Positions 4,742 to 4,980 of a stretch of 64,000 nt of DNA are shown piece after piece. The notes under the pieces were generated by a model. The model did no database searches. It was not told the origin of the DNA and worked only from the letters and a program-made list of their open reading frames with translations. The stretch covers positions 1-64,000 of the forward strand of contig JBBDJA010000017.1 of assembly GCA_040880105.1 (NCBI GenBank), given 5' to 3'. The position numbers and the translations under genes are program-made. The stretch is from Waddliaceae bacterium (lineage in GTDB: Bacteria; Chlamydiota; Chlamydiia; Chlamydiales; SLOH01). Each line of letters opens with the position of its first letter. Positions within the stretch are counted from its first letter, which is position 1.

Positions 4742-4980
4742 TTTGTAGCTGTTCCCGAATGCGTTCAAGTTCAGTAGCAAAAACGTAATCAATGCTATAT
4801 GCTTCATCTTCTCTGACCTCTCGCGTTATCCAAAAAAGACTTCGTATAAAATCAGGAAATTCAACTGTAAGTCGATCGGCCAAAGTCGTTTTCCCTGTTC
4901 CGGAAGGGGCGCTGATCACTATAAGGTTTCCTTTTTCCCGTTCACTCGACATTTTGTAGCTGTTCCCGAATACGTTCAAG
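4559..4980. repeat. 211-bp tandem duplication (4559-4769 / 4770-4980) of the yicC 3' end and gmk 5' end
   Basis: Direct alignment at offset 211: about 13 mismatches in the first 67 bp and 1 in the remaining ~144 bp. Confidence 0.95.
4731..4952 (-). pseudogene. 73-aa chimeric ORF: Gmk N-terminus fused to the YicC C-terminal tail
   Basis: MSSEREKGNLIVISAPSGTGKTT...DYVFATELERIREQLQNVE, produced by the duplication. Confidence 0.7.

Follow-up and report, generated by a model that had tools for sequence, protein, structure and literature searches.

The duplicated yicC–gmk boundary

The window analysed here, a stretch of 64,000 nucleotides, comes from an environmental chlamydia-like bacterium, whose genome (1.67 Mb, 90% complete) includes it as contig C17. 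Its minus strand carries, in this order, yicC, gmk, a 73-aa ORF, a 213-aa ORF and a gene that we take to be metG from the appearance of its sequence, with no profile scan behind the name (Table 1). The 190-aa product of gmk scores 239.3 bits against TIGR03263 (cut-off 160.45) over positions 1–178 of the 180 in the profile, and it passes the curated cut-offs of both TIGR03263 and PF00625, which makes it a member of the guanylate kinase family. It is the one full-length gmk found in this genome, and it sits after yicC, as in most of the chlamydial loci examined. The true start of yicC probably lies about 33 codons inside the ORF, the match to TIGR00255 beginning at residue 34. The 73-aa ORF after gmk (3948-4169) has no match in Pfam or NCBIfam; from synteny it may be the omega subunit of RNA polymerase.

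Table 1. Coordinates of the features at the yicC–gmk locus, numbered along the window
Feature	Position	Strand	Remarks
yicC (YicC/YloC endoribonuclease)	4942..5922	-	TIGR00255, 228 bits, cut-off 167.5; stop codon overlaps the start of gmk in copy A
Copy A: true yicC end plus decayed gmk 5' fragment (codons 1-61)	4770..4980	-	Tandem unit, 211 nt
Stretch of 48 nt identical in both copies	4924..4971	-	Equals 4713-4760
73-aa chimeric ORF, Gmk(1-61)::YicC tail, predicted to be catalytically dead	4731..4952	-	Ends at the duplicated yicC stop, over the native gmk ATG
Three positions that match copy B in the window and differ in other assemblies	4864, 4894, 4923	-	4894 is the P-loop glycine, G20E
Divergence peak, 12 differences in 42 nt	4793..4834	-	-27 to +15 around ATG 4807; copy comparison
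Shine-Dalgarno-like site for ATG 4807	4816..4822	-	GAGAGG inherited; change at 4816 adds one pair; -5.8 to -7.0 kcal/mol
22-codon in-frame leader, signal-peptide-like	4742..4807	-	GTG at birth, ATG now
Hydrophobic core, leader residues 4-12	4772..4798	-	+1 frame of the Gmk DGVDYVFVTE motif
Novel junction at microhomology of 5 of 6 nt	4764..4775	-	Thr-Glu codons of yicC and gmk, same register
Putative cleavage region, V16A at 4761	4754..4762	-	A-F-G (after residue 18) or L-N-A (after residue 16)
Copy B: duplicated yicC tail plus 5' end of intact gmk	4559..4769	-	Tandem unit, 211 nt
gmk, intact guanylate kinase, 190 aa	4169..4741	-	ATG 4741; TIGR03263

The boundary between yicC and gmk is present twice, as a head-to-tail pair that differs at 14 positions in the window. 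Both the 211-nt period and the microhomology at the novel junction are those of a short-junction tandem duplication; moreover, both parent genes are intact and a 73-aa chimera is formed at the junction. An earlier note on this DNA had proposed that the period is 3n+1 and that the duplicate is read in a shifted frame straight into gmk, and both points are confirmed, by the 211-nt pair and by the ORF from 4807. Neither requires selection: the two genes overlap in different frames, and at the junction codons of the Gmk frame are followed by codons of the YicC frame. A slip within the 48-nt identical stretch would bring back the single-copy state. An attachment scar left at yicC by an integrative element was also considered and was dropped, since the fragment has decayed and the two copies have no element between them.

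The stretch is present in three runs (X1, X2 and X3), all of them sediment metagenomes from one study, and in two of these, X1 and X2, a 223-nt contig spans the junction with at least 31 letters on each side. The X1 and X2 contigs differ from copy B at three extra positions (4864, 4894 and 4923). The chimeric peptide is also encoded by a second assembly, from which the protein collection has it as P0123, with G20E and V30A, the two residue-changing differences among these three. Once they are counted, the copies differ at 17 of 211 positions. Thus, the junction contigs in two runs and the chimeric peptide of the second assembly indicate that the duplication is real. Misassembly, which the earlier note had named as fatal to its proposal, is contradicted by the same evidence and largely refuted: we consider it extremely unlikely that the duplication is an assembly artefact, even though copy A of the window lacks the three differences seen in the other assemblies and X1 and X2, which like X3 belong to a single study, may be the source of this DNA, because 17 differences cannot come from sequencing error. 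As a possible source of this genome, X1 and X2 give no independent support for the distribution of the duplication.

The differences missing from the window are the isolated ones, spaced 29–30 nt apart, and were probably erased by the assembler as it merged small bubbles; the version in the window could alternatively be a real, converted allele. Other short repeats in this genome may likewise be over-homogenised by assembly. The depth of the loop contig is about half that of its flanks (4.9 against 6.7–8.6 in X1, and 4.3 against 7.1–11.3 in X2), contig depth being no measure of copy number and contigs being able to join reads from different copies. In X3, a 271-nt contig (record 14), which follows the window from 5094 to 4829 except for one differing letter and has five loose letters besides, is compatible with a collapsed single-copy allele, which would differ from the window at 4834, 4828, 4827 and 4824. 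The half-depth loop and the X3 contig together hint, weakly, at a mixed population of duplicated and unduplicated alleles.

Sixteen of the 17 differences fall within the gmk fragment, of which five are synonymous and 11 non-synonymous in the Gmk frame, on the assumption that all arose in the insert (the synonymous ones could be from the intact copy); 14 of all 17 are transitions. Among the decayed residues are G20, which all 119 of 119 homologues retain, T42 and G53, each retained by 118 of 119, and S40, retained by 113 of 119. Because near-invariant Gmk residues are altered, the fragment is predicted to be dead and a functional donor is excluded. The chimeric ORF has acquired no stop and no indel despite its 16 changes and, since its stop overlaps the real gmk ATG, translational coupling should persist.

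Gmk was found in 385 of the 400 genomes scored. Eight further genomes gave two gmk matches each, none of them as a tandem copy, and among the 212 of 220 loci with a strong gmk match, some of which repeat a genome and many of which are not chlamydial, a repeat of at least 40 nt touching gmk occurs in this genome's three loci only. The best-matching named gmk loci are mostly from chlamydial metagenome bins. Scans of related loci gave no relative above 58% identity, and the junction motif had 0 matches in metagenome contigs, a set from which records of this genome may be excluded.

The leader ahead of Gmk

ATG 4807 opens a 212-aa ORF, beginning MKHIALITFLLLNLNAFGNSYK-MSSE, that is in frame with the 190-aa Gmk from ATG 4741 and runs into it, as had been claimed. 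The codon changes listed for it in the comparison of the copies (GTG>ATG, AAA>AAG, CAG>CAT, ATG>ATA, GCG>GCA and TTA>CTA) are likewise present, and all six are non-synonymous in the Gmk frame. As a sign of selection, however, they are a chosen subset, since seven more changes lie at 4809-4834 and four of these are synonymous in the Gmk frame. The remaining elements of the proposal hold in part. GAGAGG does lie 9 nt upstream of ATG 4807, but it was already in the parent sequence and is not derived. The V>A change at 4761 is there, but the description of its surroundings as conserved depends on the assembly, the X1 and X2 contigs carrying three more differences. A basic n-region, a hydrophobic core and A-F-G do pass a crude n/h/c rule, but the core, the GTG and V-F-G are inherited.

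Leaders were scored with a home-made rule and a trained matrix, neither of them a substitute for SignalP; by the rule, the leader passes both at birth and now, as do 13% of 944 ORFs of the genome. The n-region, M-K-H, is charged through an inherited K2. The best 8-residue hydropathy is 3.04, against a median of 3.0 for the genome's rule-passers, and the best 12-residue hydropathy, 2.1, is in the lowest 14%. Small residues stand at -3 and -1 in L-N-A (after residue 16) or A-F-G (after residue 18; V-F-G at birth), and the matrix places its best site after residue 15, so the position of cleavage is uncertain. Against this matrix, built from 72 leaders of this genome, the present leader scores above 35% of them, a level matched by 5.4% of other ORFs. 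Judged from sequence, the leader does resemble the short Sec leaders native to this genome. In a search for Atlas features, leader residues 1-45 gave none above 0.86, and Atlas searches overall gave none at or above 0.9.

Reconstruction of the leader at birth gives a GTG start, GAGAGG, the same core and V-F-G, so that only Q3H, M4I and V16A distinguish it from the present form. Because most of the signal was inherited by accident, the leader is probably a harmless scar. The strongest in-frame start at birth was ATG 4798 (4796-4798; −10.9 kcal/mol), whose ATG and ribosome site are both now lost. A hydrophobic +1 frame over the DGVDYVFVTE motif is found in other gmk genes as well: among 185 distinct homologous segments, 115 are stop-free in this frame, 21 of which reach a mean hydropathy of 2.0 over eight residues and four, this one included, 2.9.

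The homologues of Gmk that we examined have no signal-like leader. No signal-peptide Gmk was found among 211 homologues with the P-loop motif (from 239 proteins examined), and the one P-loop protein of these 211 that passes the leader rule is a fusion with a dehydrogenase domain. The closest Gmk from outside, P0002 (74%), has a normal start. The protein collection holds the 190-aa Gmk of this genome and not the 212-aa form; this absence says little, because gene callers avoid long overlaps.

As for export, the genome encodes signal peptidase I (LepB), a T2SSF protein and three nucleotide translocases, and GMP synthase (GuaA) was not found in its 90%-complete sequence. Gmk requires ATP and GMP and yields only GDP, and we know of no evident periplasmic role for it. 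In C. trachomatis, CPAF is described as being delivered outward by Sec plus type II secretion (PMC6717882). Given LepB and T2SSF here, that precedent implies that an export route exists. In the literature searched, which takes in few subscription journals, no precedent surfaced among the papers listed for a secreted or signal-peptide guanylate kinase, as judged by titles and opening lines of abstracts, nor for signal peptides drawn from alternative frames or random sequences. Gains of signal peptides by bacterial proteins are known, and are described as rarer than losses, more so in endosymbionts (PMC5952966). The gains in Enterobacterales reported there are alike in that an N-terminal segment is added and its charge, hydrophobic stretch and A-x-A are then refined by few substitutions. 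In contrast, the added segment here stems from gmk itself, read out of frame in a copy of its coding sequence (the word 'frameshift' is absent from the main text of that study), the same locus keeps the cytoplasmic isoform, and the gain is putative.

The divergence peak and tests for selection

Twelve of the 17 differences lie within 42 nt, 52-93 nt upstream of the gmk ATG (P about 4e-4 with uniform placement and 1.5e-4 with base weights). With gene conversion at work, a local peak of divergence has been described as indicating selection (PMC3924837, a review citing Teshima and Innan 2008), and the present pair is like that model in that the divergence of the duplicates is low except for one narrow peak at a candidate selected site. 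Unlike in the model as described there, neutral, divergence-limited conversion also yields peaks at this scale. In a neutral simulation in which conversion is blocked by dense mismatches and survival of the pair is assumed, a peak of at least 12 differences in 42 nt was present in 9–91% of states over nine parameter sets, and the position of the peak together with a clean junction edge in only 1–13%; these ranges come from the nine settings with at least 39 states, a tenth conversion setting, with three states, having been dropped. Because neutral conversion makes such peaks too, the peak is not diagnostic of selection here. Clustering is also seen in other near-tandem pairs of this genome, in seven of 14 at P<0.05 and in four of 14 at P<0.01, the pairs sharing the same assembler and many of them lying in coding repeats. 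Another case is a 181-nt partial-gene tandem copy at the 3' end of a membrane-protein gene (G000:C8:5652-5993), about 10% diverged. This copy shows four period-3 changes in a row and, even though it comes after a stop, six of its 10 coding changes leave the residue of the parent frame unaltered. Since its changes are rich in parent-frame synonymous ones, it is no clean neutral control.

The 12 differences could also be a patch copied in one event from another locus or from a related organism, as the sharpness of the 42-nt cluster and its two adjacent-base doublets might suggest. We regard such an origin as very improbable: nine of the 12 changes are transitions, they affect near-invariant residues, unlike what a functional donor would bring, and the best other match in the genome covers 29 of the 42 letters and lacks several of the derived ones.

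MutS is present in this genome, and mismatch repair stabilises diverged repeats. Short tandem repeats are described as deleting often in E. coli (PMC8378479); because they are lost so readily, the long survival of this pair under apparent conversion hints at selection. RecA, which 20 of 20 relatives have, was not found in this 90%-complete genome. The genes that flank recA in the sister genome also lack a close match here, so that a gap in the assembly is the probable cause. In that sister genome, a gene that we take to encode a UmuC-like error-prone polymerase (L231:2360-3604, G001:C16) sits immediately upstream of recA.

The codon-position argument for selection on the new frame, as the earlier note had put it, was not borne out. 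With seven changes placed at the observed density, the probability of at least three of seven being synonymous is 0.42 and that of at least four at third positions is 0.25, neither of which is significant. Other properties of the leader have changed in the direction expected of a functional start. The ribosome site of ATG 4807 went from −5.8 to −7.0 kcal/mol, a value reached by 16% of 944 starts and by 5% of 3000 sampled out-of-frame ATGs, the energies being computed with a canonical 16S tail, no 16S tail having been found in the genome. Local folding of the mRNA weakened from −7.9 kcal/mol at birth to −4.1 kcal/mol at present, the matrix score rose from 5.4 to 8.6, and V16A created L-x-A, the commonest cleavage site among the 72 leaders. 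Of 5000 neutral draws, 15% gained an ATG, 23% matched the present ribosome site and 10% the present score, and all three improvements occurred together in 0.5% (joint P about 0.005, under random placement and post hoc). In addition, the 32 nt that flank the junction (4761-4792) hold two changes, where the base-specific rates of the peak would predict 6.6 (P 0.02). Both this deficit and the joint improvement were chosen for testing after the data had been seen, at a locus picked for these very features. The proposal that selection acts on the new frame is partly supported, in that start, ribosome site and score have improved together, but the codon tests are not significant and the leader was signal-like at birth; such selection is possible.

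Origin and possible roles of the insert

Of the readings considered, that of an old, near-neutral and partly homogenised scar of a short-junction tandem duplication appears to us reasonably probable. In this scenario, the 211 nt across the yicC stop and the gmk start were duplicated at the microhomology, giving two automatic products, the 73-aa Gmk::YicC-tail peptide and the +1-frame leader that runs into Gmk. The peptide would keep translational coupling, so that expression of gmk would be little changed and the insert tolerated. The insert has since decayed through a neutral mix of changes that altered invariant Gmk residues. Template switching or conversion from the intact copy may have homogenised most of it and left a self-protecting peak; the assembler probably removed the three isolated differences, and the insert may occasionally collapse to one copy. 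The leader itself would be an inherited by-product of a T-rich conserved motif, and the cell may produce a certain amount of Gmk with the leader, or even export it, without a selected function. Comparable events are described in S. aureus, where the nusG'-'sigH and rplK'-'sigH duplications (PMC3486894) also arose at a direct repeat of few bases between two co-oriented genes, left the parents intact and produced an in-frame chimera at the junction; those duplications are reversible, as the one here may be. The duplication analysed here differs in being only 211 nt long and old (8% diverged, 29% in the peak), and in placing a shifted-frame leader on the intact downstream gene besides the chimera, with a function that is putative.

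In favour of a scar we count a leader that was signal-like at birth, the stop-free, hydrophobic +1 frame in 21 of the 185 homologous segments, the decay of near-invariant residues in the Gmk frame, the non-significant codon tests, the neutral peaks in simulation, the clustering in four of 14 other pairs at P<0.01, the persistence of the C8 copy, the fit of the X3 contig to a collapsed allele together with the half-depth loop (both weak hints), the loss of the strongest start at birth, the lack of a duplication at the other gmk loci scanned and the lack of a signal-peptide Gmk among the 211 homologues. Against it stand the joint P of about 0.005 (post hoc), the deficit at 4761-4792, the rarity of the peak's position and clean edge in neutral states (1–13%), the long survival of a repeat of a readily deleted kind, which the simulation takes for granted, and the C8 pair not being cleanly neutral.

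A second reading is that of an exported, selected isoform, which we consider rather unlikely. A leader formed by chance would have been refined by GTG>ATG, a longer ribosome site, less mRNA structure, M4I and V16A with its L-x-A, so that the locus would yield a cytoplasmic Gmk from ATG 4741 and a Gmk with a Sec leader from ATG 4807, the latter to be cleaved by signal peptidase I and delivered to the periplasm or onward through type II secretion. Conversion and collapse would be blocked by selection for the new start, which would account for the peak. The changes in folding, ribosome site (within the top 16% of 944 starts) and score, the common L-x-A, the joint test and the core deficit all fit, as does the peak itself, a described sign of selection where conversion is active (PMC3924837). 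LepB, T2SSF and the three translocases are present, GuaA was not found, CPAF in C. trachomatis offers a precedent for the route (PMC6717882), and a Gmk of the same genus is fused behind a domain with hydrophobic segments. Nevertheless, the components are singly non-significant, the joint test is post hoc on a finding picked for these features, peaks also arise from neutral conversion, and X3 likely holds a single-copy allele; moreover, no signal-peptide Gmk occurs among the 211 homologues and no precedent surfaced in the literature searched. To our knowledge, a kinase in need of ATP and GMP has no evident role in the periplasm. The fullest form of the proposal, in which a shifted-frame copy of gmk gave rise to a working signal peptide and selection tuned it until one locus of a host-dependent chlamydia made both cytoplasmic and exported Gmk, with the fusion in the same genus as a second, independent exit, is likewise doubtful. 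Less likely still is that the insert is kept for regulation, with the peak acting as a promoter or an extra ribosome-loading site, or the 73-aa relay tuning translation of gmk. The peak does sit upstream of gmk, the relay ORF is still open after 16 changes, and junction duplications are described that activate a gene in S. aureus (PMC3486894). A scan for sigma-70-like promoters, however, gave two sites in 2.5 kb, both outside the insert, against a chance expectation of 4.8; a relay would stay open by chance in roughly half of cases (an estimate, not a computed value), and the X3 contig is compatible with a collapsed allele.

If the locus is the scar that we favour, it illustrates how duplication of a gene boundary can produce what passes for a new targeting signal, and how a signal of selection can be exaggerated when assembly removes isolated differences from short repeats. 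If the leader were instead a working one, a single locus would preserve a new signal peptide in both its ancestral and its derived form, which is rare, its start codon, ribosome site and cleavage site would each be directly testable, and an exported guanylate kinase would join the ways in which chlamydiae could act on host nucleotide pools.

In the only other genome of the genus (G001, 57% complete), yicC is cut by a contig end. Its Gmk (L018:1474-2769, G001:C3, minus strand) is without a start of its own and continues in frame from a 240-aa domain, which belongs to an unnamed family and has moderately hydrophobic segments; five distant relatives of this domain (285–382 aa, no Pfam match) stand alone. 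The neighbours of the fusion are a leucine-rich-repeat gene and a SodC-like gene, not yicC. This fusion shows that Gmk can gain N-terminal parts in this genus and does not address the leader itself. In another genome (G040), gmk is split over two contig ends (L010 and L050) near codons 41–44, which may reflect a repeat or an assembly gap. A further fusion, of 487 aa, has Gmk in front of a second domain (L058:1468-2931, G225:C33), which we take to resemble the endonuclease/exonuclease/phosphatase type.
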